IMG/VR virus record: IMGVR_UViG_3300047440_000231
Span: 1-45,618 of that record
Length of the DNA stretch: 45,618 nt
From: a virus
Reading direction: 5' to 3' (one strand)
Shown: positions 1,426 through 33,123 of the stretch, in pieces
Position numbering within the stretch: position 1 is the stretch's first letter
Layout: every line of letters starts with the position of its first letter
Translations under genes and position numbers: made by a program
Notes under the pieces: model-generated
Told to the model about the DNA's origin: nothing
Seen by the model: only the letters and a program-made list of their open reading frames with translations
Database searches by the model: none

Positions 1426-1517
1426 GCGTCCTCGGCTCGATGATATTCGGCGGCTTTTGCGGGCTCGCGCTCCTTGGCCTGATGTGGTGGCTGTCCGGCC
1501 GGTATTTGCCACGATGA
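1422..1517 (+). CDS. Micro membrane protein (31 aa, one TM)
   Basis: MSVLGSMIFGGFCGLALLGLMWWLSGRYLPR. ATGA overlaps at both ends. Lies inside the longer track ORF 1170..1517. Confidence 0.45.
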   Translation: MSVLGSMIFGGFCGLALLGLMWWLSGRYLPR

Positions 1518-1651
1518 CCCGCCCTCACGCGCTCGCATGGGCTTGGCTGCTCAGCCTCGTGGCCGTCGCCGGGATCATGCTCAACCTGGCGGCCTGCTCC
1601 AGCACCAGGCTCGACCGCAACTGCCCGCCGCCGATCGGGTGCCCGAAATGA
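1514..1651 (+). CDS. Small putative lipoprotein (45 aa)
   Basis: Signal peptide plus lipobox L-A-A-C (..IMLNLAAC). The mature peptide is an 18-aa Cys/Pro-rich sequence, CSSTRLDRNCPPPIGCPK. ATGA overlaps at both ends. Confidence 0.5.
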   Translation: MTRPHALAWAWLLSLVAVAGIMLNLAACSSTRLDRNCPPPIGCPK

Positions 1652-4747: not shown

Positions 4748-6164
4748 CCAGCGCAAGGCGGCGCTGCGGTTTGTCCAGGAGCGCAAGAAGTTCCGGCGGT
4801 TCGGGTTTTTCGTGCCGCACCCCAAGCAGATGCAGCATTTGGAGCTTGGGGCGACCAAGCGAGAACGGCTGCTTATGGCAAATAACCGTGCTGGAAAAAC
4901 TGAAACCGGGGCGTTCGAGGCGGCCTGCCACCTGACCGGGGAGTACCCGGATGGCTGGCGCGGCCGTGTGTTCACGCAGCCGACCATTGGGTGGGTTGCG
5001 GGCGAGACCTCGTTGCTGGTGCGCGATGTGCAGCAGAAGAAGTTGTGCGGCGATCCTGGTGTCGAGTCGACGTTCGGCACCGGTATGATCCCGAAGGCAT
5101 CCTTCGTCGACAAGCCCTCGCTGGCGCGCGGCGTCACGGATGCCTACGACACGATCCAGGTCCGGCACAGGTCGGGCGGCGTGTCGATCGCGCGGTTCAA
5201 GTCCTATGAGCAGGGCCGGACCAAGTTCCAGGCCGAGGGCCTTGACTGGATCTGGTTCGACGAGGAGCCGCCGCTCGACATCTATGCGGAGGGAATAGCC
5301 CGCATCGGCGAGCGCGATGGCATCGGCTGGCTGACCTTCACGCCGCTCAAGGGCCGGTCCGACGTCGTGATCCGGTTCCTCGACGAGCCCTCGCCGGACC
5401 GTGGCATCACCACGATGACGCTCGAGGACTCGCTTCATATCCCGCCGAAGATCCGCAAGAAGATGGAGGCCGGCTACCTGCCGCACGAGCGCGAGGCGCG
5501 CGCCCGCGGCGTGCCGATGCTTGGCTCGGGGCGCATCTTCACCGTGACCGAGGAGTCGATCACGGAGCCCGCGATCGAGATCGTGCCGGCGTTCTGGAAG
5601 AAGCTATGGGGCATCGACTTCGGCATCGGCCACCCGTTCGGCGCCGTGCTCATGCTATGGGACGTCGACAACGACGTGATCCACCTCCACCACGCGATCC
5701 GCATCACCGATGCCCTGCCGATCCAGCATGCTGCTGCGATGAAACCGGTCGGTGCCGATGTCCCGGTCGCCTGGCCGCACGACGGCGGCGAGCGCCGCGA
5801 CGACGGCAAGCCGATGAGCGATCACTACAAGCGCCACGACCTCAAGATGCTGGACTCGCATGCGACCTGGCCGGATGGCGGCATATCGACCGAGGCAGGC
5901 ATCCTGGAGATGGATGACCGGATGCGCTCCGGCCGCTTCAAGGTCGCCGCGCATCTGTCGGAATGGTTTGAGGAATTTCGGTTCTACCACCGCAAGGATG
6001 GCAAGATCGTCAAGATCAAGGACGACCTGATGTCGGCGACCCGGATCGCGGTGATGTCGAAACGCCACGGTCGCGCGGTCACGCTCGGCGGCCTGCGGAC
6101 CAAGCGCCTGGCCGGCATGATCCCCGCCGCCGGCATCGACTTCGACGTCTGGGCCGGGGCATAG
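4725..6164 (+). CDS. terL: Terminase large subunit
   Basis: Walker A NNRAGKTE; Walker B LDWIWFDEEP; nuclease-domain motif WGIDFGIGHPF. The track start is a TTG that overlaps the terS end. Confidence 0.9.
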   Translation: MTQPLTNDQRKAALRFVQERKKFRRFGFFVPHPKQMQHLELGATKRERLLMANNRAGKTETGAFEAACHLTGEYPDGWRGRVFTQPTIGWVAGETSLLVRDVQQKKLCGDPGVESTFGTGMIPKASFVDKPSLARGVTDAYDTIQVRHRSGGVSIARFKSYEQGRTKFQAEGLDWIWFDEEPPLDIYAEGIARIGERDGIGWLTFTPLKGRSDVVIRFLDEPSPDRGITTMTLEDSLHIPPKIRKKMEAGYLPHEREARARGVPMLGSGRIFTVTEESITEPAIEIVPAFWKKLWGIDFGIGHPFGAVLMLWDVDNDVIHLHHAIRITDALPIQHAAAMKPVGADVPVAWPHDGGERRDDGKPMSDHYKRHDLKMLDSHATWPDGGISTEAGILEMDDRMRSGRFKVAAHLSEWFEEFRFYHRKDGKIVKIKDDLMSATRIAVMSKRHGRAVTLGGLRTKRLAGMIPAAGIDFDVWAGA

Positions 6165-6173
6165 GAGAGAGAC

Positions 6174-6353
6174 ATGGGCGATATCATCCCGTTCAAGCCG
6201 AGGCCAGGGCCGGAGCTGAACTACGGCTGCTCGCCAGCGATGCTCGTTCTGTCGGACCTCAAGACATGGAACGCTTTCCAGTTGGCCGAGCGCGCCGCGG
6301 CCATTCGCGAGATCATGGCGGACCCGCTCCCCAAAGATACGTTGCCGGCCTGA
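6174..6353 (+). CDS. Hypothetical protein (59 aa, below the ORF-track cutoff)
   Basis: ATG at 6174 follows SD AGGAGAGA. Translation MGDIIPFKPRPGPELNYGCSPAML...PKDTLPA; TGA at 6351-6353. Confidence 0.5.
   Translation: MGDIIPFKPRPGPELNYGCSPAMLVLSDLKTWNAFQLAERAAAIREIMADPLPKDTLPA
6337..6347 (+). promoter_or_regulatory. Conserved 11-mer ATACGTTGCCG, copy 1
   Basis: Exact 11-mer overlapping the last codons of 6174..6353. Followed by the hairpin GTGCCGC-N13-GCGGCAC (6376-6402). Confidence 0.5.
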
Positions 6354-6468
6354 CCCCTCCCGGCGCACCGTCAGCGTGCCGCATGACGCATCCACGCGGC
6401 ACACAACCCCACCTGGGCTGGGCCGGCGCGAAGAGGCAGCCGGCCCGCCCTCCTTTGACGGAGCCGAT

Positions 6469-6660
6469 ATGGCGCTGCCAAGCCTGACAGGTTCCGCCAC
6501 CGCCGACCTCGGCATGGGTGACATGTTGCAGAGCCAGGCGGCCGGCGAAACCGAGGAAATGCGCAAGAAGCGCATGGCCGAGATGCAGGCGCAGAAGATG
6601 ATGGGCGCCGCGGGCTCCCCGGCGGCGCAGATGCTGCTGGGTGGAGGGCCTGTCCGATGA
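6469..6660 (+). CDS. Hypothetical protein (63 aa)
   Basis: Internal Met of track ORF 6376..6660, with SD GACGGAG. ATGA overlap with the next gene. Confidence 0.5.
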   Translation: MALPSLTGSATADLGMGDMLQSQAAGETEEMRKKRMAEMQAQKMMGAAGSPAAQMLLGGGPVR

Positions 6661-7031
6661 TCGGACGTCGAGGCGTCATTCAGGGTGGAGCAGCAGTTGC
6701 CATAGCCGCAGCTACTGTTCAGATCAGCGATGCCCTTGCCGACAAATATGTGTGGTGGGAGTGCAGTCAGTTTTCTCGCGATCAATATCCGGATGACTGG
6801 CGACAGTGGCCGGAGGACAATCAAAAACTTGCGCGGCGTGTTGTCGAACGATGGCTGGCGCGCATCCCTGGCGCTAAGATTGTCGAGGATATCTCACTCT
6901 GCGTAGGGCCGGATCATCCGCGTTATCCTGACCAGTCGCTGCAGCCTGAGCATTTCAAGGGCGGTTTTCATCTGGTGCGGCAGGTCCGACTTGACCGAGC
7001 GATACCGGAATATGATGACCCCGGATACTGA
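6657..7031 (+). CDS. Small exported protein with twin-arginine-type signal
   Basis: N-terminus MIGRRGVIQGGAAVAIAAATVQISDALA. G+C looks lower than in neighbouring genes (by eye). Confidence 0.6.
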   Translation: MIGRRGVIQGGAAVAIAAATVQISDALADKYVWWECSQFSRDQYPDDWRQWPEDNQKLARRVVERWLARIPGAKIVEDISLCVGPDHPRYPDQSLQPEHFKGGFHLVRQVRLDRAIPEYDDPGY

Positions 7032-7500
7032 AGCCGCCCACGAGCTGATCCGCCACTCACGAGATCTCCGCGACATGTGGCAGGGCCGCGTGCTCGCACA
7101 CGCCAAGGGCAACAACCTCCTCGCCGTCACCTCGATGCTCGCACACGCGTTCGACGACGCGATGGGCATCATGCTGCGCGTGGTCAAGCCGAAGTGCTGG
7201 GACGTCGAGCGACAGAGCCTGCGCGCGCCGTTCCTGTGCTCGATCGCCAAGATCGATAAGCGATCTCATGTGGTCGCCGATGTGATCGATAACGACGGCA
7301 CCAAGCTCAAGGACGTCGTGGTCTATCGATCGACCGCGCATTTTCAGGGCGAGATGCGCCGCGTCGCCGATGTCGCGCGGCTCACCGACGGAGAGCGCCA
7401 CGAGTTCTTCATCGTCGCCAAGAGCTGGATCGCCGCCGATCGAAGGCTCGATCCCAACATGAACCCGGCGGACCCAGATGCCCGACGACTCGTCAATTAA
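7012..7500 (+). CDS. Hypothetical protein
   Basis: First ATG (Met8) of track ORF 6991..7500, whose listed start is a TTG. Confidence 0.6.
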   Translation: MMTPDTEAAHELIRHSRDLRDMWQGRVLAHAKGNNLLAVTSMLAHAFDDAMGIMLRVVKPKCWDVERQSLRAPFLCSIAKIDKRSHVVADVIDNDGTKLKDVVVYRSTAHFQGEMRRVADVARLTDGERHEFFIVAKSWIAADRRLDPNMNPADPDARRLVN

Positions 7501-7672
7501 GATCCCGCCCGGCCTCATGAAGGTCGAGGTCTTTGCCGACTCGATCGGCGTATGGCGGCGTGAGACATGGGACGTGACAGTCAAGTATTGTCCGCTCATC
7601 GTCTATGACGTTGCGACTATGACGAAGGACGAAAAGGCGTATCAGGTCGAGCGACTGGTCAGGATTTCCTGA
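7478..7672 (+). CDS. Hypothetical protein (64 aa)
   Basis: ORF track. Its stop overlaps the portal start (TGATG). Confidence 0.5.
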   Translation: MPDDSSIKIPPGLMKVEVFADSIGVWRRETWDVTVKYCPLIVYDVATMTKDEKAYQVERLVRIS

Positions 7673-9453
7673 TGGCCGAGCAACTCGCCGTCGACATGAA
7701 AATACCTGATGGCGGCGCGCTCCGCATGCCGGATACGCGCGAGACCGAGCTGGTCAATCAGTTGATCCGCGAGTTCTCGCAATACACCGTGTGGCGCAAC
7801 ACCACCGGGCTCCATTGTGAAGAGATCGCAGAGATCGCGCTGCCGACGTCACGTAACACGTTCTTCTACGGCAACTTCAACTGGCCGGGGCAAAAGAAGA
7901 CCCAGCAGCAGGTCGACGCCACCGCGGCGCTGGCGCTGCATCGGTTCTGCGCCATCGCCGACTCGCTGGTCACGCCGCGCAACTCGCCGTGGCATGGGCT
8001 CGAAGGCGACGACTACGTGATGAAAGACCGCGCCTCGCGGCTGTGGCTCGAGGACACGGTCAAGCTTCTGTTCAAGCAGCGCTATAAGTTCGAGGCTAAT
8101 TTCGCCGCGCAGAACTACAACAACTGGCAATCGCTCGGCGCGTTCGGCAACTCGACCATGTATATCGACAAGCTCGACACCCGCTGGCATCGCGGCACCC
8201 GCGGCCTGCGCTACAAGGCGATCCCGTTCGGCGAGACGTTCTATGGCGAGAACCACCAGGGCCGCGTCGACAAGATGTATCGCTGGTTCAAGCTCACCGC
8301 ACGGCAAGCCGTGCAGAAGTGGGGCTTGAGCAATCTGCCGGCCAACCTGCTCGCGCCGCTGATCTCCGAAAGCCAGTGGCCATACAACTTCCTGCACGTG
8401 GTCAAGCCGAGGAGCGACTACGATCCAGAGCGGCTCGACGTCAAGGCGCTGCCGTTCTGCTCGTACTATGTTTCGCTCGAAGGCCGCTGCCTGATGCCGT
8501 CGCCGGAGACCGGTCGCAAGGAAGGCGGCTATCGCGTCTTCCCGTTCGCGGTCTCGCGCTACGACCAGACGCCGAACGAGGTCTATGGCCGTGGCCCGGC
8601 GCATATCGTGTTGCCGGCGATGAAGACGCTCAATGCCGAGAAGGTCACGTTCTTGACGCAGGGACATCGCGCCGCATCGCCGGTGCTGCTCCTTGCCGAG
8701 GACGGCCTGATGGGCATGGACATGCGACCCGGCGCCAAGAACTACGGCGGCGTCACCTCGGACGGCAAGCTTCTCGTCCATACGCTACCGACCGGCGACA
8801 TCCAGATCAGCAAGGAGATGATGGCGCAGGAAGCCTCGATCATCGACGACGTCTTCCTGGTGTCGCTGTTCAAGGTGCTGACCGAGCATCCCGCGATGAC
8901 CGCGACCCAGGTGATCGAGCTGGTCAACGAGAAGGGCATGCTTGTCGCCCCGACGCTCGGCCGCCAGCACACCGAATATGTCGGCGGCATGGTGTGGCGC
9001 GAACTCGATCTGATGTCCGAGATGGGCATGCTCTCGCCGCCGCCGCCGCGGCTCGCCGAAGCGTTCCGCCAGCTCGGCCACGGCGCCTATGACGTGACCG
9101 ACACCTCGCCGCTCGCGCAGGCTGCCAAGGCCGGCAAGGCGGCCGGCTTCATGCGCTCGGTCGAGATGAGCCGCGAGATCGTCAACATCACGCAGGATCA
9201 GAGCTATCTCGATCCGTATGACTTCGACACCGCGACGCCCGAGATCGCCGCCATCAACGGCGTGCCGGAGCGCTGGATGGCCGATCCGCAGAAGATCGCA
9301 CAGAAGCGCCAGTCCCGCGCGCAGCAGATGGCCCGCCAGCAGGCCGCCCAAGAGGCGCCGGCCAAGGCCGCGATCATGAAGGCGCAGGCCGTGCAGGCCA
9401 AGTCCGGCCTGCCGACCCAGACGCAATTGCCGGCGATCCAGGGTGGCGCGTGA
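7672..9453 (+). CDS. Portal (head-to-tail connector, T7 gp8-like)
   Basis: 593 aa, positioned after the terminase. Has a VYGRGP motif (compare T7 gp8 SYGRSY) and a Gln/Ala-rich C-terminal tail. Confidence 0.8.
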   Translation: MAEQLAVDMKIPDGGALRMPDTRETELVNQLIREFSQYTVWRNTTGLHCEEIAEIALPTSRNTFFYGNFNWPGQKKTQQQVDATAALALHRFCAIADSLVTPRNSPWHGLEGDDYVMKDRASRLWLEDTVKLLFKQRYKFEANFAAQNYNNWQSLGAFGNSTMYIDKLDTRWHRGTRGLRYKAIPFGETFYGENHQGRVDKMYRWFKLTARQAVQKWGLSNLPANLLAPLISESQWPYNFLHVVKPRSDYDPERLDVKALPFCSYYVSLEGRCLMPSPETGRKEGGYRVFPFAVSRYDQTPNEVYGRGPAHIVLPAMKTLNAEKVTFLTQGHRAASPVLLLAEDGLMGMDMRPGAKNYGGVTSDGKLLVHTLPTGDIQISKEMMAQEASIIDDVFLVSLFKVLTEHPAMTATQVIELVNEKGMLVAPTLGRQHTEYVGGMVWRELDLMSEMGMLSPPPPRLAEAFRQLGHGAYDVTDTSPLAQAAKAGKAAGFMRSVEMSREIVNITQDQSYLDPYDFDTATPEIAAINGVPERWMADPQKIAQKRQSRAQQMARQQAAQEAPAKAAIMKAQAVQAKSGLPTQTQLPAIQGGA

Positions 9454-27982: not shown

Positions 27983-29452
27983 ATGACCCGCATTCTCGCC
28001 GGCATCCTGCTCATCCTTTCCAGCGTCGCATCGGCCCAGCCGTTCCCGCAGACTATGCCGCCCGATTCCGTGGTCGGCCGCCTCGGACCGCCGACATCAG
28101 GGCCAGGCTCCGCGGTCACGATGGCGAGCCTGCAGGCGCGGCTGCTGGCCGGCGAGCGGCCGGTAGCGGATGCCAACTTCCTGATGGTCGCGACCGATCG
28201 GGTCATCGCCTACACGTCGATCTCGGCGGCGCGCACCGTGACGCTGCCATCTGCATCGCTGATCGCGGCCGGCACCCGCATCATGATCTTCGATCGCTCC
28301 GGCAGCGTGTCCGCGGTCAACACGATTTCGGTGGCGCCCTCCGGCGCGGATACGCTCAATGGCGCAGGCACGCCGCTGGTCGCCGTCCAGTCACCGCGCG
28401 GCATGGTCGAGGTCGAGACCGATGGCATCTCGAAATGGACGGCCTTGCAGCTCGGCGGCAGCGTCAGCTCGGTCTCCAACTCGGATGGATCGCTGACGGT
28501 CGCCCCGACAACCGGCGCCGTCGTCGGATCGATCAATCTCGGCCATGCGAACACGTGGACGGCTGTCCAGCAGTTCAACGCCGCCACCTATTTTCAGAGT
28601 GGCTCGCCATGGGCCGACGTCAAGGCATTCGGCGCACTCGGCAACAACTCGAACGATGACACCACCGCGATCCGCAATGCGATCACGCAGGTCGGCACCA
28701 CGGGCGGGGTCGTGAATTTCCCGCCCGGCGCCTACAAGATCACCGGCACGCTGACGATACCGAGCGGCGTCATTCTCCGCGGCATCAACATCACGGCGAC
28801 GTCGATCTTCGCGACCTCGGCCGATTTCACCGCGATTGCATACACCGCCAACGATAGCGGGTCCGGCCTTGAGCGCTTGAGCGTGTTCTGCATTCAGAGC
28901 CTCACGGCGACGACCCCGTGCGTCACGATCGGCGCGAATGCCTTCATCAACATGCACGACTTCCGCATCTGGGGCGGGCTGCATGGCATCCAGACTGCCG
29001 GCGCCGACGGCTATTACGAGAATGGCTATGTCTGTGGCTGGGCCACCGCGGGATACTGCATCTCGTCGACGGGCGCGAACTGGTACAGCCGCATGAAGCT
29101 CGACGGCATCAATGGCGGATCGAGTGCCGGCGCGTTTATCCAGGGCACGGTTGCGGCGCTTGCCGAGAACCACTTCTCGCTGACGGATTTCTCGGGATCG
29201 TTCACCAACAGCATCGTGATCACCGATGCCAACAGCCTTTCATTGACCGTGATCCAGGGCAGCGTTTTCTCCTCGCCGATCCTGATCGGTCAATCGAAGG
29301 CAACGATTCTGACCGGCAACGAAATCGGCAGCACCTCACTAGCCGCGAGCGGCGGGCCACTCATCATGGCCGGCAACTACGCTTTTAGCGCCACGACCGC
29401 CAGCGGGACGTCGGTGCGGACATGCGCGGGGAACGCCAACGTCACGTGCTGA
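27983..29452 (+). CDS. Tailspike/tail fibre with pectate-lyase-3-like beta-helix and N-terminal signal-like segment
   Basis: N-terminus MTRILAGILLILSSVASA|QP. VKAFGALGNNSNDDTTAIRNAI..GGVVNFPPGAYKITGTL is a Pectate_lyase_3 signature. PPDSVVGRLG is a fibre-type N-terminal motif. Confidence 0.7.
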   Translation: MTRILAGILLILSSVASAQPFPQTMPPDSVVGRLGPPTSGPGSAVTMASLQARLLAGERPVADANFLMVATDRVIAYTSISAARTVTLPSASLIAAGTRIMIFDRSGSVSAVNTISVAPSGADTLNGAGTPLVAVQSPRGMVEVETDGISKWTALQLGGSVSSVSNSDGSLTVAPTTGAVVGSINLGHANTWTAVQQFNAATYFQSGSPWADVKAFGALGNNSNDDTTAIRNAITQVGTTGGVVNFPPGAYKITGTLTIPSGVILRGINITATSIFATSADFTAIAYTANDSGSGLERLSVFCIQSLTATTPCVTIGANAFINMHDFRIWGGLHGIQTAGADGYYENGYVCGWATAGYCISSTGANWYSRMKLDGINGGSSAGAFIQGTVAALAENHFSLTDFSGSFTNSIVITDANSLSLTVIQGSVFSSPILIGQSKATILTGNEIGSTSLAASGGPLIMAGNYAFSATTASGTSVRTCAGNANVTC

Positions 29453-29462
29453 TACGTTGCCG
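29452..29462 (+). promoter_or_regulatory. Conserved 11-mer ATACGTTGCCG, copy 6
   Basis: Begins on the last base of the TGA at 29450-29452, upstream of the lysis cassette. Confidence 0.5.
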
Positions 29463-29490
29463 CAACCGCCGGTAAGCCCATGCTCCCAGC

Positions 29491-29568
29491 ATGAGAGCCT
29501 TCTGGATCGCCGCCGCAATTGCGCTCGCGCTTTACTGGTTGGCATACCTCTATCTCAACACAGCATAG
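29491..29568 (+). CDS. Possible TM micro-ORF (25 aa)
   Basis: MRAFWIAAAIALALYWLAYLYLNTA has a single hydrophobic helix. No clear SD. Directly upstream of the endolysin-like gene. Confidence 0.3.
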   Translation: MRAFWIAAAIALALYWLAYLYLNTA

Positions 29569-29577
29569 GAGCGCGGC

Positions 29578-30138
29578 ATGGATCTCTCCACGCTGACGGC
29601 TGCGAACGCGCGTCGCTGGGCTGCCATGAAGGTGCGGCCCGAGCTGGTAGCCATGGTCGATCAAGTCGCGCATCGCCTAGTCGCCGCGCAACCGCGCTAT
29701 CAGGTCGTCTCAGGGCAGACCAAGGTGCCGTGGGATGTGATCGCGGTCATCCACGAGCGCGAATCGTCGCAGAGCTGGAAGGCAAGCTTGGCGCAGGGCG
29801 ATCCGTGGAATCAGGTCTCGATCCATGTCCCGCGCGGCCGTGGCCCATTCCAGAGCTGGGAGGCCGCCGCCGCCGATGCGCTGGTGGTCTGCCCGCCGTT
29901 CGCCTCGCGCTGGACCGATTGGTCGGATGGCGGCCGGCTGACGCTGCTCGAGCAATACAACGGCCTCGGCTACTTCCACATGGGCATCCCATCGCCCTAT
30001 GTGTGGGCCTCGACCGATCAGTATTCGCACGGCAAGTACATCGCCGATGGCCATTTCGATCCGAACGCAGTCGACCATCAGCTCGGCTGTGCGGCGCTGC
30101 TTTCGCGCATGGCAGCGATCGGAGCGCCGGCAGCATGA
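29578..30138 (+). CDS. Putative endolysin (lysozyme-like/lytic-transglycosylase-like fold)
   Basis: IAVIHERESS (Glu-Ser catalytic-type motif) ... LLEQYNGLGY ... SPYVW. SD GGAG. First gene of an ATGA-coupled chain. Confidence 0.55.
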   Translation: MDLSTLTAANARRWAAMKVRPELVAMVDQVAHRLVAAQPRYQVVSGQTKVPWDVIAVIHERESSQSWKASLAQGDPWNQVSIHVPRGRGPFQSWEAAAADALVVCPPFASRWTDWSDGGRLTLLEQYNGLGYFHMGIPSPYVWASTDQYSHGKYIADGHFDPNAVDHQLGCAALLSRMAAIGAPAA

Positions 30139-30509
30139 CATGCGCCGTCATCGGGGATTCGATTGCGGTCGATGTCGGTCGCGCGATGCCACAGTGCGCG
30201 ATGAACGCTAAGATCGGCATCGGTTCTGCCGCGATCATCGGGCGAGTTGTGGCCGCGGATCTCACGGTGATCTCGGCCGGCAGCAATGATCCGCTCAATC
30301 CGGCGCTCGCGAGCAACCTTGAGAGCATGCGCAACCGATGCAAGGGACGGGTGATCTGGATACTGCCGATCCAGCCTCATGCGCGCAACGTGGTTGGCGG
30401 CGTTGCCGCACGTCATGGCGATGCGACCGTTAGCTTTGCTCCGGCCCGCGACAACGTGCATCCCCGTGTCGTTGGCCAGATCGTTACCGCCATCGGAGCC
30501 GCGCGATGA
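30135..30509 (+). CDS. SGNH/GDSL-type hydrolase (esterase)
   Basis: 124 aa with block I VIGDSIA, block III SAGSNDP and block V DNVHP. ATGA overlaps at both ends. This is the in-frame 3' part of the spurious track ORF 29457..30509. Confidence 0.6.
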   Translation: MTCAVIGDSIAVDVGRAMPQCAMNAKIGIGSAAIIGRVVAADLTVISAGSNDPLNPALASNLESMRNRCKGRVIWILPIQPHARNVVGGVAARHGDATVSFAPARDNVHPRVVGQIVTAIGAAR

Positions 30510-31213
30510 ACCACCGCGATCTCGCCGATCTCGTCTCGTGGCTTTACGGCTCGACGTCATATGAGCCGGAGGAGAGGACGGAAGGCGCGGCAATCATGGT
30601 GCGCCTGCTCGCCAAGTTTCCGACCCTCCGAGTTCTCTACGTCAGTAACCCTGATGCGATCGTCGTTTTTGCCATCGTCCGCATCGACAACAATCTGAAT
30701 GTCGTCTACCGCGGATCGTATACGGGACGGGACTGGATACTCGACGCGCTGGTCAAGGAGACGGACCCGAAAGGCCGGCCTTCGATCAAGCAGGTCCATA
30801 GCGGCTTCTACGGCGGCACCGTGGAGGCATCGGACATCGTGATGATGTTCTACAGAATCGGGGACCGGATCATCATCATAGGCCATTCGCTGGGCGCGAG
30901 CCGCGGCGGCATCGAGGCCGAGCATCTGGTGGCGATCGGCATCCTGCCGCACCTTGTTGTGCTATGGGCGCCGCCGGCCGCATTCAAGCCGTCCGATATG
31001 CCGGCGCCGAAATATCCGCTCATCATGTACCGCAACCTCGTCAACCACGAGGAAGACCCGGTGACCTATTCGACGGATATCGTCGGGTATGAGCACCGCG
31101 CACCGTGGGTTGACGTCTCGGCGCCTCCCGCCAATCCGAAATGGTGGGACCCCTTCGACCTTCACCACTTCGCGCTGTACGCGAGCGTCACACCCGCAAC
31201 GGAGATCCCATGA
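30506..31213 (+). CDS. Class 3 lipase-like alpha/beta hydrolase
   Basis: VVYRGSYTGRDW, VHSGFYGG, nucleophile elbow IIGHSLGASRG, and later EEDPVT and HH candidates for the Asp/His of the triad. No signal peptide. Confidence 0.7.
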   Translation: MNHRDLADLVSWLYGSTSYEPEERTEGAAIMVRLLAKFPTLRVLYVSNPDAIVVFAIVRIDNNLNVVYRGSYTGRDWILDALVKETDPKGRPSIKQVHSGFYGGTVEASDIVMMFYRIGDRIIIIGHSLGASRGGIEAEHLVAIGILPHLVVLWAPPAAFKPSDMPAPKYPLIMYRNLVNHEEDPVTYSTDIVGYEHRAPWVDVSAPPANPKWWDPFDLHHFALYASVTPATEIP

Positions 31214-31401
31214 CAGTCGCAGACGGAATCACAGCCTTGAGCCTGCTCGTCGCCGTCGAGATGGGCGTCGGTCACGGCACGATCGCGCTCACGAATGCCA
31301 TCCCGGAAGCCTGGGTGCCGCGTGTGCAGGCATGGTGCAACATCCTCGCGACCGTCGGCAGCCTGATGATCACCGCGCTCAGCCGCTACACGGGAGCCTG
31401 A
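31210..31401 (+). CDS. Holin-like small membrane protein (two TM)
   Basis: 63 aa from the internal Met (ATGA overlap). Hydrophobic stretches ITALSLLVAVEMGVGHGTIAL and ILATVGSLMITAL. Confidence 0.45.
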   Translation: MTVADGITALSLLVAVEMGVGHGTIALTNAIPEAWVPRVQAWCNILATVGSLMITALSRYTGA

Positions 31402-31402
31402 C

Positions 31403-32029
31403 ATGAGACACCACCGCATCATGGCCGCATGGCTAACTGGGTCGGCGCTGGCCGCCGTGGCGATCTTCCTGCTGGCGATGCCGGCGCAGGCGCAGGGGCC
31501 GCGCCCTCGCCCGACTGGCGACGCCGTGAAGGACATCAAGACCCTCATCGGCGGGCAGGGGCAGGGCAGCGACGAGGCCGCGCAAACCTCGACGGGCGGA
31601 ACGAAGTCAAGCGACAAGCTCGCCCAGATCCTCGCCAAGCCGTTCAACGACCTCGCCGACTTCATCAACAGCGACACCGCGGCGGCCGTCACACTCTCGA
31701 CCGCGATCCCCGAGCTGCAGGACGGCCACGGGCAGCAATGCTGGATGGCGATGGGCCAGTTCACCTCGGTACTCAAGGCGCATCCGATCCCGGTCACGCT
31801 GCACGCCGCGACCGACCTCGAAGCATTCCGGCTCGCCGCGATGGCCGCGAACAACCTGTGCCACAACTCGAGCTGCAACCAGATTTTCACCGACCTCGCC
31901 AACAGCATTCAGAAGGCCGCGCCGGTCAATCTCGGCATCCCGATCCCTAGCCTGTCGAGCCTATGCGCCTATGTTCCACAGGTGACGGTCATGCCGCCGG
32001 TGACGGCCGCCGCACCCAAGACCCCGTAG
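31403..32029 (+). CDS. Secreted protein of unknown function (Sec signal peptide)
   Basis: N-terminus MRHHRIMAAWLTGSALAAVAIFLLAMPAQA|QG. Four Cys in the mature part. Confidence 0.6.
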   Translation: MRHHRIMAAWLTGSALAAVAIFLLAMPAQAQGPRPRPTGDAVKDIKTLIGGQGQGSDEAAQTSTGGTKSSDKLAQILAKPFNDLADFINSDTAAAVTLSTAIPELQDGHGQQCWMAMGQFTSVLKAHPIPVTLHAATDLEAFRLAAMAANNLCHNSSCNQIFTDLANSIQKAAPVNLGIPIPSLSSLCAYVPQVTVMPPVTAAAPKTP

Positions 32030-32106: not shown

Positions 32107-32298
32107 ATGCACGGCCAGCGATCGGAAGACGACAAGGTTGTCGATGTCACTCTCGGGGATACCAAGCGCTGGGACGCGGCGGCTAATGTCGTGGAGAAGA
32201 GCACATTTCTTGCAAAGGCCATCGGCTGGGTAACCGGCGCTCTCGTGAGCGGGATGGGCCTGCTGTTACTGTTCAAGCAATTGTGGATGGGAAAATGA
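32107..32298 (+). CDS. Small C-terminally anchored membrane protein
   Basis: ORF track. C-terminal hydrophobic stretch WVTGALVSGMGLLLLF. Confidence 0.5.
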   Translation: MHGQRSEDDKVVDVTLGDTKRWDAAANVVEKSTFLAKAIGWVTGALVSGMGLLLLFKQLWMGK

Positions 32299-32807
32299 CC
32301 GACGAGCGGTTTCGTAAAATCTGTCACCTGTGCATCTGGCCGCCGGCCGCGATCGTACTGTTCGGCTTCGCGGTCTGGCTGTTCGTGATCGAGAACGATT
32401 CGCCGGTCCTGAGCTTCGGCGCCAAGGCGAACTTCTTCCTGACCCTCGATGGCGACACGCCGGCCACGACCATCCACCTCGACGACCAACCCAAGCTTGC
32501 TCTCACCAAGACGTCGTGGCTGCGCGCGTGCCCGAACTCCAAGAGCGAGCAGTTCCTACAGGTCGACGGCCATCACCGCATCGACGTCGCCGTGCACCCG
32601 ATCGCCTATCCGGGCGTGCTGGGTCCCGTGCCGGCCAAGTCGAGATGGATCGTCGGACCGAACGAGACCATGCGCTCGATGAGCTTCGGCCAGACCGGCA
32701 AGGCGGTGTTCTGGATCTCGGCCGTGTCGACCTGCGAATGGGGATGGTGGAGCAAGAAAGTGACGCCGGTCGAGACGTCGAAGTTCGAGTTCGACATCCT
32801 CCCGTGA
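32295..32807 (+). CDS. Membrane-anchored protein (N-terminal TM)
   Basis: ATG at Met5 (ATGA overlap). TM segment IWPPAAIVLFGFAVWLFVI followed by a ~130-aa soluble domain. Confidence 0.6.
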   Translation: MTDERFRKICHLCIWPPAAIVLFGFAVWLFVIENDSPVLSFGAKANFFLTLDGDTPATTIHLDDQPKLALTKTSWLRACPNSKSEQFLQVDGHHRIDVAVHPIAYPGVLGPVPAKSRWIVGPNETMRSMSFGQTGKAVFWISAVSTCEWGWWSKKVTPVETSKFEFDILP

Positions 32808-32811
32808 TGCC

Positions 32812-33123
32812 GTGCCCGCGCAACCCCTGCCATGGCAGTTTATCCTCGGGGCTGGCTCTCTGGCGCTCCTGAGCTTCGGATCGATCTGGACGATCTTCAA
32901 CGACAAGTTTGCAGAGGCCGAGCGCCGCGACGTTTCGATCAATCGTGAGATTTCTAACATCCATTCCGAGCTGCTGACGCGCCGGCATGAATTCGTACAG
33001 CAGGAGGAGTTCAAGGAGTTCGAGAAGCGCGTCGATCAATACATGGCGACGCCGTTCTTGACGCGGAATGAGTTCGATCGGTGGAGAGCCGAGCGGGACC
33101 GCGGGCTCAAGAAGCCGGACTAG
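32812..33123 (+). CDS. Type-II membrane protein with coiled-coil (i-spanin-like topology, weak)
   Basis: GTG start. TM segment FILGAGSLALLSFGSIWTIF followed by a charged helical region. The stop overlaps the convergent gene's stop (CTAG). Confidence 0.45.
   Translation: MPAQPLPWQFILGAGSLALLSFGSIWTIFNDKFAEAERRDVSINREISNIHSELLTRRHEFVQQEEFKEFEKRVDQYMATPFLTRNEFDRWRAERDRGLKKPD

Follow-up and report, generated by a model that had tools for sequence, protein, structure and literature searches.

The outer membrane confronts phages of Gram-negative hosts with a problem that is met by spanins (Rz/Rz1 and T1 gp11), which act by membrane fusion, or by the disruptin phiKT gp28, a cationic peptide; neither is enzymatic. 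To our knowledge, enzymatic accessory lysis factors have been established only for phages of the mycolata. One of these, LysB, presumably cleaves an ester-linked outer-layer lipid once the wall has been breached (PMC5707550, PMC6139136). About 13% of the phages that infect Gram-negative hosts have no recognisable spanins and must break the outer membrane by another route (PMC6139136). Here we describe the lysis cassette of the IMG/VR virus record IMGVR_UViG_3300047440_000231, a complete metagenome contig of 45,618 bp (the window), which encodes a predicted SGNH serine esterase and a predicted class-3 lipase between its endolysin and a holin-like protein; the two genes occupy the kind of cassette neighbourhood in which other phages encode spanins or the disruptin but, unlike these, would encode enzymes. 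An original prediction, made from the sequence alone, had placed the two enzymes where spanins would be expected. We favour, with moderate confidence, the reading that they are add-on lysis esterases of a podophage cassette and not stand-ins for spanins.

The window lipase recalls LysB in that both would be alpha/beta-hydrolase-class serine esterases that lack a signal peptide and are encoded between endolysin and holin. LysB, however, is cutinase-like rather than a Lipase_3 protein, has a demonstrated function and serves in mycolata hosts, whose mycomembrane is covalently tied to the wall, whereas the window phage is assigned a proteobacterial host with a lipopolysaccharide (LPS) outer membrane and the role of its lipase is a prediction. 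We detected no sequence relationship between the window lipase and LysB, and no Pfam or PHROG match of the former to cutinase or LysB families; the resemblance is, by this comparison, one of position and logic only. Effectors of the Tle type, delivered by the type VI secretion system (T6SS), are alpha/beta lipases with which Gram-negative cells are killed by attack from the periplasm. The genomic relatives of the phage lipase lie in such a setting in the two loci inspected, and the phage protein has a weak Pfam match to a Tle1-like catalytic domain (E 0.13), but identity is 24–31% only, and the effectors are large multidomain proteins with cell-to-cell delivery and paired immunity lipoproteins.

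The SGNH protein shares with the OatA C-domain and with Ape a minimal SGNH fold, a Ser/His/Asp set with a block-III Asn, and a substrate logic, in that the O-acetyl group of N-acetylmuramic acid (MurNAc) blocks muramidases (PMC1199599). It differs from OatA in length (124 aa compared with ~155 aa), in standing alone without an AT3 membrane partner and in sequence (13–15% identity), and OatA transfers acetyl, which the SGNH protein is proposed to hydrolyse. Ape1 has an additional carbohydrate-binding insert. In Wolbachia phage WO, a lipolytic enzyme encoded beside a small holin-like gene has been proposed to take part in lysis of an alphaproteobacterial host (PMC9203015); it differs from the window lipase in being a patatin-like phospholipase A2 instead of a Lipase_3 protein and in being proposed, as a hypothesis only, to replace an endolysin in a host without detectable peptidoglycan. 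Full-text literature searches brought up no account of phages of Gram-negative hosts that use a lipase or an esterase in lysis.

The lysis cassette

The cassette follows the stop codon of a pectate-lyase-type tailspike gene at 29452, and all of its genes described here lie on the + strand. An ORF and sequence check recovered the six open reading frames (ORFs) of the original prediction, with their positions and motifs. Five of them had been described as chained by ATGA start/stop overlaps; three such overlaps are present (GCAGCATGACATG at 30135, CGCGATGAACC at 30506 and CCCATGACAG at 31210), but the fourth junction, 31401/31403 (GCCTGACATGAG), reads TGAcATG and is a 1-nt gap. A GGAG motif lies 6–14 nt 5' of the start of each of the five larger ORFs (29578–32029). 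A promoter and terminator scan gave counts at chance level.

Long spurious ORFs are frequent in genomes of 63% G+C, and the cassette genes are judged real because their homologues keep catalytic residues, not because of ORF length. The lysozyme-like ORF has 2729 homologues and the SGNH ORF has 50; the 208-aa exported protein is represented by 198 clusters, and the lipase family comprises 14 proteins. The SGNH esterase and the lipase are integral, translationally coupled members of the lysis cassette.

The class-3 lipase

The lipase gene (30506–31213) encodes a 235-aa class-3 lipase family esterase with a GHSLG elbow and no signal peptide. The protein falls just below the cut-off of the Pfam family Lipase_3 (PF01764; E 3.2e-4, 21.0 bits against a cut-off of 22) and matches the esterase/lipase family phrog_21992 at 3.2e-8; PF01764 is precomputed in 9 of its 13 homologues. 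The residues H127-S128-L129-G130, D184 and H220/H221 are invariant in the family, and a family profile searched against the PDB matches solved class-3 lipases at 1.9e-10 over ~155 residues, which makes an alpha/beta-hydrolase fold very likely. GHSLG and the Asp motif (D-x-V/P) align to the solved lipases 5xk2 and 5ch8, and the catalytic His (H220/H221) is assigned by conservation only. With its GHSLG, Asp and His invariant and its profile match to solved enzymes, the class-3 lipase assignment of the original prediction holds, and the protein is, as far as homology can tell, an intact serine esterase of the class-3 type.

The family is tiny, with its 14 members found among 5.8 billion proteins. 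A tblastn search of 50,697 phage records found no match in isolated phages; when a distant homologue (P0013) served as the query, weak partial matches to cyanophage class-3 lipases were obtained (E 9e-3 to 0.8). Among 185,579 species genomes, there are only distant relatives, at 24–31% identity, in 30 loci (L025–L054), 27 of which are in Pseudomonas. In the two Pseudomonas loci that were inspected, the Lipase_3 domain lies within a 718–727-aa protein that adjoins a VgrG-like gene and a lipoprotein gene, as in a T6SS effector setting. Distant and of this type, the Pseudomonas loci were ruled out as homologous contexts of the phage lipase.

Lipase-bearing cassettes in relatives

Every lipase context that we recovered is a lysis cassette (related loci are referred to by their numbers). 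The gene order is SGNH, lysozyme-family, lipase, 67-aa two-transmembrane (two-TM), 135-aa and 221-aa exported protein in L002; lysozyme-family, lipase, 67-aa two-TM protein and a holin::exported fusion in L004; GH108 endolysin, lipase, 62-aa two-TM and exported protein in L006; Rv2525c-like glycosidase, 147-aa protein, 83-aa protein, lipase and a holin::exported fusion in L012; and lysozyme-family followed by lipase in L013. The lipase thus occupies an internal, start/stop-overlapped position in five further cassettes of its family, beside endolysins of three unrelated types (lysozyme-family, GH108 and Rv2525c-like). The persistence of this position as the endolysin type changes is the strongest evidence that the lipase works in lysis.

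A seventh cassette, L014, carries a second, very distant Lipase_3 lineage 3' of the exported protein, in the order glycosidase, two-TM protein, exported protein, Lipase_3 (5865–8050). A fusion of the exported domain with Lipase_3 (P0305) was considered as a Rosetta-stone link between the two and dropped, as the endolysin and exported-protein genes of L014 contain frameshifts and the fusion may be an assembly artefact; we retain the adjacency of the two genes.

Both esterases occur together in the window and L002, while L004, L006, L012 and L014 have the lipase without an SGNH gene. Only one of eight distinct IMG/VR cassettes carrying the exported domain has the lipase, and the same rarity is seen in the 14 lipase proteins compared with 198 exported-domain clusters and 2729 lysozyme-family matches. 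The L055 cassette, whose endolysin is 77% identical to that of the window, has neither esterase and has an outer-membrane protein (OMP)-like beta-barrel protein in the slot of the exported domain. By this comparison, the lipase is apparently an optional add-on to the cassette.

The SGNH esterase

The 124-aa product of 30135–30509 (pI 10.1) is a minimal SGNH serine esterase without a signal peptide, and contains the blocks GDS, GSND and DxxH. Across 50 homologues, G7 and D8 of block I, G49 and D52 of block III, and D106 and H109 of block V are invariant, and S9 of block I and N51 of block III are at least 90% conserved; a Cys3/Cys21 pair is likewise conserved. The protein is missed by Pfam and NCBIfam hidden Markov models. 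An AlphaFold2 (AF2) model has a pLDDT of 97.5 and a pTM of 0.91, with strands alternating with helices, and the best Foldseek matches in the PDB are the Staphylococcus aureus OatA C-domain (6vjp; E 1.6e-4, TMq 0.75) and, next, GDSL lipases, at a probability of 1.00. The model and these matches display the three-layer alpha/beta/alpha flavodoxin-like fold of the SGNH/GDSL superfamily. A family profile finds 5ug1 as its best PDB match (E 1.4e-3); 5ug1 and 5ufy are deposited as 'Acyltransferase', and we take them to be the pneumococcal OatA C-domain. Matches in BFVD are phage SGNH proteins, both stand-alone and as tail-fibre domains (probability 1.00). The structural check proposed for the original SGNH assignment therefore returned the fold in a confident model together with a conserved Ser-Asp-His set, and the protein is, by this model, an intact serine esterase of the named fold.

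All examined homologues with more than 40% identity to the window protein (BLASTP) directly adjoin a muramidase-type endolysin. The SGNH gene lies 3' of the lysozyme-family gene in the window and 5' of it in L002, while in L024 it has an ATGA overlap with the stop of a pesticin/T4-lysozyme-like enzyme, and in the contig of P0019 it overlaps an upstream 208-aa ORF by 4 nt. Bradyrhizobium japonicum possesses a pat/ape cluster, and O-acetylation of its peptidoglycan stands at 18.5% (PMC1199599). This modification inhibits lytic transglycosylases (PMC1199599) and sterically blocks lysozymes (PMC9862828). Because its nearest folds are OatA, its homologues adjoin muramidases and the probable host genus O-acetylates its peptidoglycan, the SGNH protein is most likely a peptidoglycan O-acetyl esterase that would clear the way for the endolysin. 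Action on O-acetylated peptidoglycan had been a secondary idea of the original prediction, and of the two enzymes it fits the SGNH protein best, given the OatA folds and profile match, the muramidase adjacency and the O-acetylation in B. japonicum.

Phage and host

The window has the genome layout of a T7-type podophage, with PHROG matches to terminase, head-tail connector, major head protein, two tail proteins and an internal virion protein. Relatives of its portal all belong to podophages of Proteobacteria (Ralstonia, Stenotrophomonas, Pelagibacter, Burkholderia and Liberibacter), a DNA search of the 50,697 phage records gave a single match, at 69.5% identity, to the endolysin gene of Bradyrhizobium phage ppBjS10J-1, and the G+C content of the window is ~63%; from these three observations we infer a Gram-negative, Bradyrhizobium-like alphaproteobacterial host. 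A tRNA search of the window gave no host hint. A mycolata host, which would make both enzymes ordinary LysB analogues, was ruled out because the portal, the tail tube and the endolysin have all their relatives in phages of Proteobacteria.

Predicted role of the two esterases

From the genes, folds, catalytic residues, synteny and lack of canonical spanins in the window we infer substrates, timing and a contribution to lysis as follows. The endolysin, the SGNH esterase and the lipase would be made in the cytoplasm and reach the periplasm together at holin triggering. There, the SGNH enzyme would strip O-acetyl groups from the C6 position of MurNAc, so that the muramidase-type endolysin could cut O-acetylated peptidoglycan. 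The lipase is probably an accessory lysis enzyme that attacks an ester-linked envelope lipid after holin triggering; this could be outer-membrane phospholipid or the ester-bound very-long-chain acyl/hopanoid substituents of Bradyrhizobium lipid A, and its hydrolysis would hasten the collapse of the envelope or bring it to completion, as LysB does in mycolata. In rhizobia the outer membrane is stiffened by very-long-chain fatty acids on lipid A; that of Bradyrhizobium bears two or more, one of which is hopanoid-linked (PMC5613085), making these substituents a plausible substrate. The remaining cassette parts, a holin-linked exported helical protein and a protein with a TM segment and a putative coiled coil, occur unchanged in relatives that lack the esterases.

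Several points weigh against this reading. The roles of both esterases are predictions from sequence, fold and context, the lipase fold is assigned by homology, and the host is itself deduced from sequence. The OatA domains act as transferases and not as esterases. Carbohydrate esterases, feruloyl esterase A among them (profile match 2.4e-5), also belong to the Lipase_3 superfamily, so a lipid is not assured as the substrate of the lipase. Remoter SGNH homologues, 37–45% identical to that of the window, occur in contexts other than lysis cassettes (one closes an early operon in MW202640, one in Methylocapsa is an orphan that carries a signal peptide, and others lie among nucleotide-metabolism genes), and some of them have signal peptides; the SGNH family therefore does not appear to be lysis-specific.

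If the add-on reading is correct, a lipase and an O-acetyl esterase in cassettes of soil alphaproteobacterial phages would extend the principle of accessory enzymes to LPS-bearing bacteria and tie the choice of lysis genes to the chemistry of the host envelope, with its O-acetylated peptidoglycan and a lipid A reinforced by very-long-chain fatty acids and hopanoid. It would also offer small enzymes (124 and 235 aa) that could potentiate endolysins on lysozyme-resistant walls. A stronger version, to which we give a rather low probability, makes the Lipase_3 enzyme a true enzymatic outer-membrane lysis factor, needed for full lysis of hosts with reinforced outer membranes and, once the holin has triggered, de-acylating the ester-linked very-long-chain fatty acid/hopanoid substituents of Bradyrhizobium-type lipid A or inner-leaflet phospholipid. 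The lipase would then be the Gram-negative counterpart of LysB and a third outer-membrane route beside spanins and disruptins.

Spanins and alternative roles

The original prediction held that the esterase and lipase may jointly form an outer-membrane disruption step that replaces spanins or a disruptin. Its premise stands. A lipobox scan of all frames and all starts over the whole window upheld the absence of an Rz/Rz1-type pair from the cassette and found no o-spanin candidate in the 29–34 kb region and no canonical pair elsewhere in the window. No window ORF combines a lipoprotein signal with a C-terminal TM segment, as in a unimolecular spanin (u-spanin) of the T1 gp11 type, and the cassette contains neither a disruptin-like cationic amphipathic peptide nor a lipoprotein partner. 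The sole credible lipoprotein ORF in the window, 1514–1651 (+ strand), encodes 45 aa with a signal peptide, a LAAC lipobox and a Cys- and Pro-rich mature part of 18 aa (CSSTRLDRNCPPPIGCPK). The ORF is in the replication module, 3' of the primase/helicase gene and beside a 68-aa two-TM ORF (1219–1425), not beside a type-II membrane protein; its product appears too small to be an o-spanin, and it could encode an exclusion lipoprotein or have arisen by chance.

One protein of the cassette does have an i-spanin-like topology. The ORF at 32812–33123, which had been overlooked in the original prediction, encodes 103 aa with an N-terminal TM segment (residues 10–28) and a charged C-terminal part. It is weakly similar to L004 3005–3445 (E 5.8e-5), and proteins of the same architecture close the cassettes of L001, L006, L012, L024 and L055. 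No ORF with a signal peptide and lipobox is nested in or adjacent to 32812–33123.

The replacement of spanins by the two enzymes has in its favour this lack of a canonical i-/o-spanin pair or u-spanin, the translational coupling of the enzymes within the cassette, the precedent of LysB for an esterase at the outer-layer step (PMC6139136, PMC5707550) and the consideration that alternatives must exist for the ~13% of Gram-negative-host phages without recognisable spanins (PMC6139136). However, the absence of spanins does not track the presence of the lipase. Related cassettes with or without lipase revealed no canonical spanins (for L014–L022, the scan used a heuristic lipobox pattern on the + strand of the fetched flanks), and in L001 (ppBjS10J-1), L024 and L055 the lipase is absent but the protein with TM segment and coiled coil is kept. 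Cassettes of both kinds keep this protein together with the holin-linked exported protein or an OMP-like protein, which are better common candidates for an outer-membrane function than a lipase found in a small minority (one of eight) of cassettes, and the SGNH protein points to peptidoglycan rather than to the outer membrane. As a replacement for spanins, the two enzymes are thus improbable. Because relatives without the lipase also lack spanins and all keep the small membrane-anchored, putatively coiled-coil protein, we regard the esterases as accessories, and the shared core of the cassette may hold a non-canonical outer-membrane device.

In L055, a 219-aa protein with a signal peptide, a faint OMP beta-barrel match and the C-terminal sequence ...YNF (6017–6676) is encoded 3' of the holin and followed by a 113-aa protein with a TM segment and coiled coil (6707–7048). 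The two could work together as a spanin pair of a non-canonical kind, in which an OMP takes the outer position. Kongari et al. reportedly speculated about an outer spanin partner of the OMP type.

We consider it similarly unlikely that the enzymes are cargo freed at lysis that acts outside the cell, where they would keep progeny from being trapped, by taking acetyl or acyl groups off the receptors on cell debris and vesicles, or would alter neighbouring cells in the manner of NanS-p. Phage SGNH domains occur mostly in tail fibres and spikes that de-acetylate surface polysaccharide (PMC7556043), NanS-p esterases are encoded beside the lysis genes of Stx phages and have a non-lysis role on external substrates (PMC10462455), remoter SGNH homologues lie outside lysis cassettes, and the pectate-lyase-type tailspike implies a polysaccharide receptor. 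Nevertheless, both genes lie between endolysin and holin with stop/start overlaps, not at the cassette edge with their own signals, the internal position of the lipase is constant despite changes of endolysin type, and domains for virion attachment or carbohydrate binding are absent from both proteins. Least probable of all is that the lipase is a carbohydrate or peptidoglycan esterase doing the work of the SGNH enzyme in SGNH-less cassettes (L004, L006, L012). In favour of this, its family profile also matches feruloyl esterase A, a carbohydrate esterase of the Lipase_3 fold (2.4e-5), and L004, L006, L012 and L014 have a lipase and no SGNH gene. Against it, the presence of both enzymes in the window and L002 speaks for different substrates, the top profile matches are true acylglycerol lipases (1.9e-10 to 2e-7), and the genomic relatives in the two inspected loci are found in a T6SS-lipase-effector setting (Pseudomonas, with VgrG-like neighbours), though at 24–31% identity.

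Endolysin and holin-like pair

The endolysin gene (29578–30138) encodes a soluble 186-aa protein of the 'lysozyme family protein' type, a name given by JGI to its 2729 homologues, all of which keep R61-E62 and the NGLGY motif invariant. The window protein shares 54% identity with the catalytic part of a ppBjS10J-1 'peptidoglycan-binding protein', which adds a PG_binding_1 domain. Searches of Pfam, NCBIfam, PHROG and PDB sequences returned nothing useful for this ORF, and its predicted role as an endolysin rests on the naming of its homologues, the PG_binding_1 fusion and its position. The homologue naming and the fusion also back the lysozyme-like assignment of the original prediction.

Upstream of the endolysin gene, a 25-codon hydrophobic micro-ORF (29491–29568) had been described as a TM protein. 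The ORF and one TM-like stretch exist, but it is a doubtful gene, with no upstream Shine-Dalgarno sequence and no homologue or family match in Pfam or PHROG. Relatives often have an unrelated small TM ORF 5' of the endolysin. In four of them, a secreted or membrane-anchored protein of ~125–185 aa is encoded 5' of the endolysin (L055 4627–5001, L006 5041–5481, L017 2854–3234 and L016 2919–3476); it contains a paired-Cys motif (CC..D, e.g. GLCCSFADG) and has no counterpart in the window.

The 63-aa ORF at 31210–31401 encodes a two-TM, holin-like protein, as originally described, that is 54% identical to residues 11–62 of a 277-aa fused protein of L012, corresponding to the two-TM part of this holin fusion. 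It is the positional counterpart of the 62–67-aa two-TM ORFs of L002, L004 and L006. It has no Pfam match to PF23987 at E <= 1 and is therefore apparently a holin-like analogue, not a PF23987 member. The adjoining 208-aa protein (31403–32029) is exported, with a signal peptide or anchor, a PRPRP linker and an all-alpha domain with four invariant Cys residues. In L004 its homologue is joined to a holin domain of the Pam3-gp28 type (PF23987), and in the 277-aa protein of L012 to a two-TM domain of the 63-aa type; because of these fusions, the 63-aa and 208-aa ORFs are interpreted as split halves of one holin::exported-domain unit.

Most of the 198 representative clusters of the exported domain are 280–330 aa in length, with the domain at the C-terminus. 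In an alignment of the family (A4), C113, C153, C158 and C188 are invariant and A28/A30 (AxA) are nearly so, even in the holin-fused forms, which suggests that an internal signal-peptidase cleavage might free the domain into the periplasm. An AF2 model of the 208-aa protein (pLDDT 79) has helices over residues 68–172, and Foldseek found no significant PDB match for it. The comparison of cassettes thus reveals a widespread holin-linked exported domain, which may be the real common outer-membrane factor.

Downstream genes and tailspike

Two further membrane proteins are encoded between the exported protein and the protein with i-spanin-like topology. The first (32107–32298) has 63 aa, with a C-terminal TM-like stretch at residues 38–56, and is 86% identical to the product of L004 2300–2491. 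The second (32283–32807) is a 174-aa type-II membrane protein with an N-terminal TM segment at residues 18–36; it is 97.6% identical to the product of L004 2488–3000 and has no family match in Pfam, PHROG or NCBIfam. The lipases of the window and L004 are just 54% identical, which suggests that the ORFs for the 174-aa protein and the adjoining 63-aa protein may be a recently exchanged module.

The cassettes of L012, L020 and L024 have a terminal signal-peptide protein (8777–9217, 6915–7442 and 7557–8297, respectively) that is absent from the window. Two of the three are similar C-terminally (47% over 81 residues, E 1.6e-15), in a part that by eye resembles a CHAP/NlpC-type peptidase (...WCGW...VVVWxHHVG...). 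Family searching picked up no such peptidase (the L012 protein has no Pfam match). The protein could be a second, exported wall hydrolase.

Ahead of the cassette, the N-terminus of the tailspike (27983–28050, + strand) resembles a Sec signal, MTRILAGILLILSSVASAQ..., and is followed by a conserved stretch, PPDSVVGRLGPP.... The same Sec-like start is found in tail-fibre proteins of relatives (L006 1761–2807, L006 2804–4732 and L055 2242–4107), which is odd for virion proteins that are assembled in the cytoplasm.

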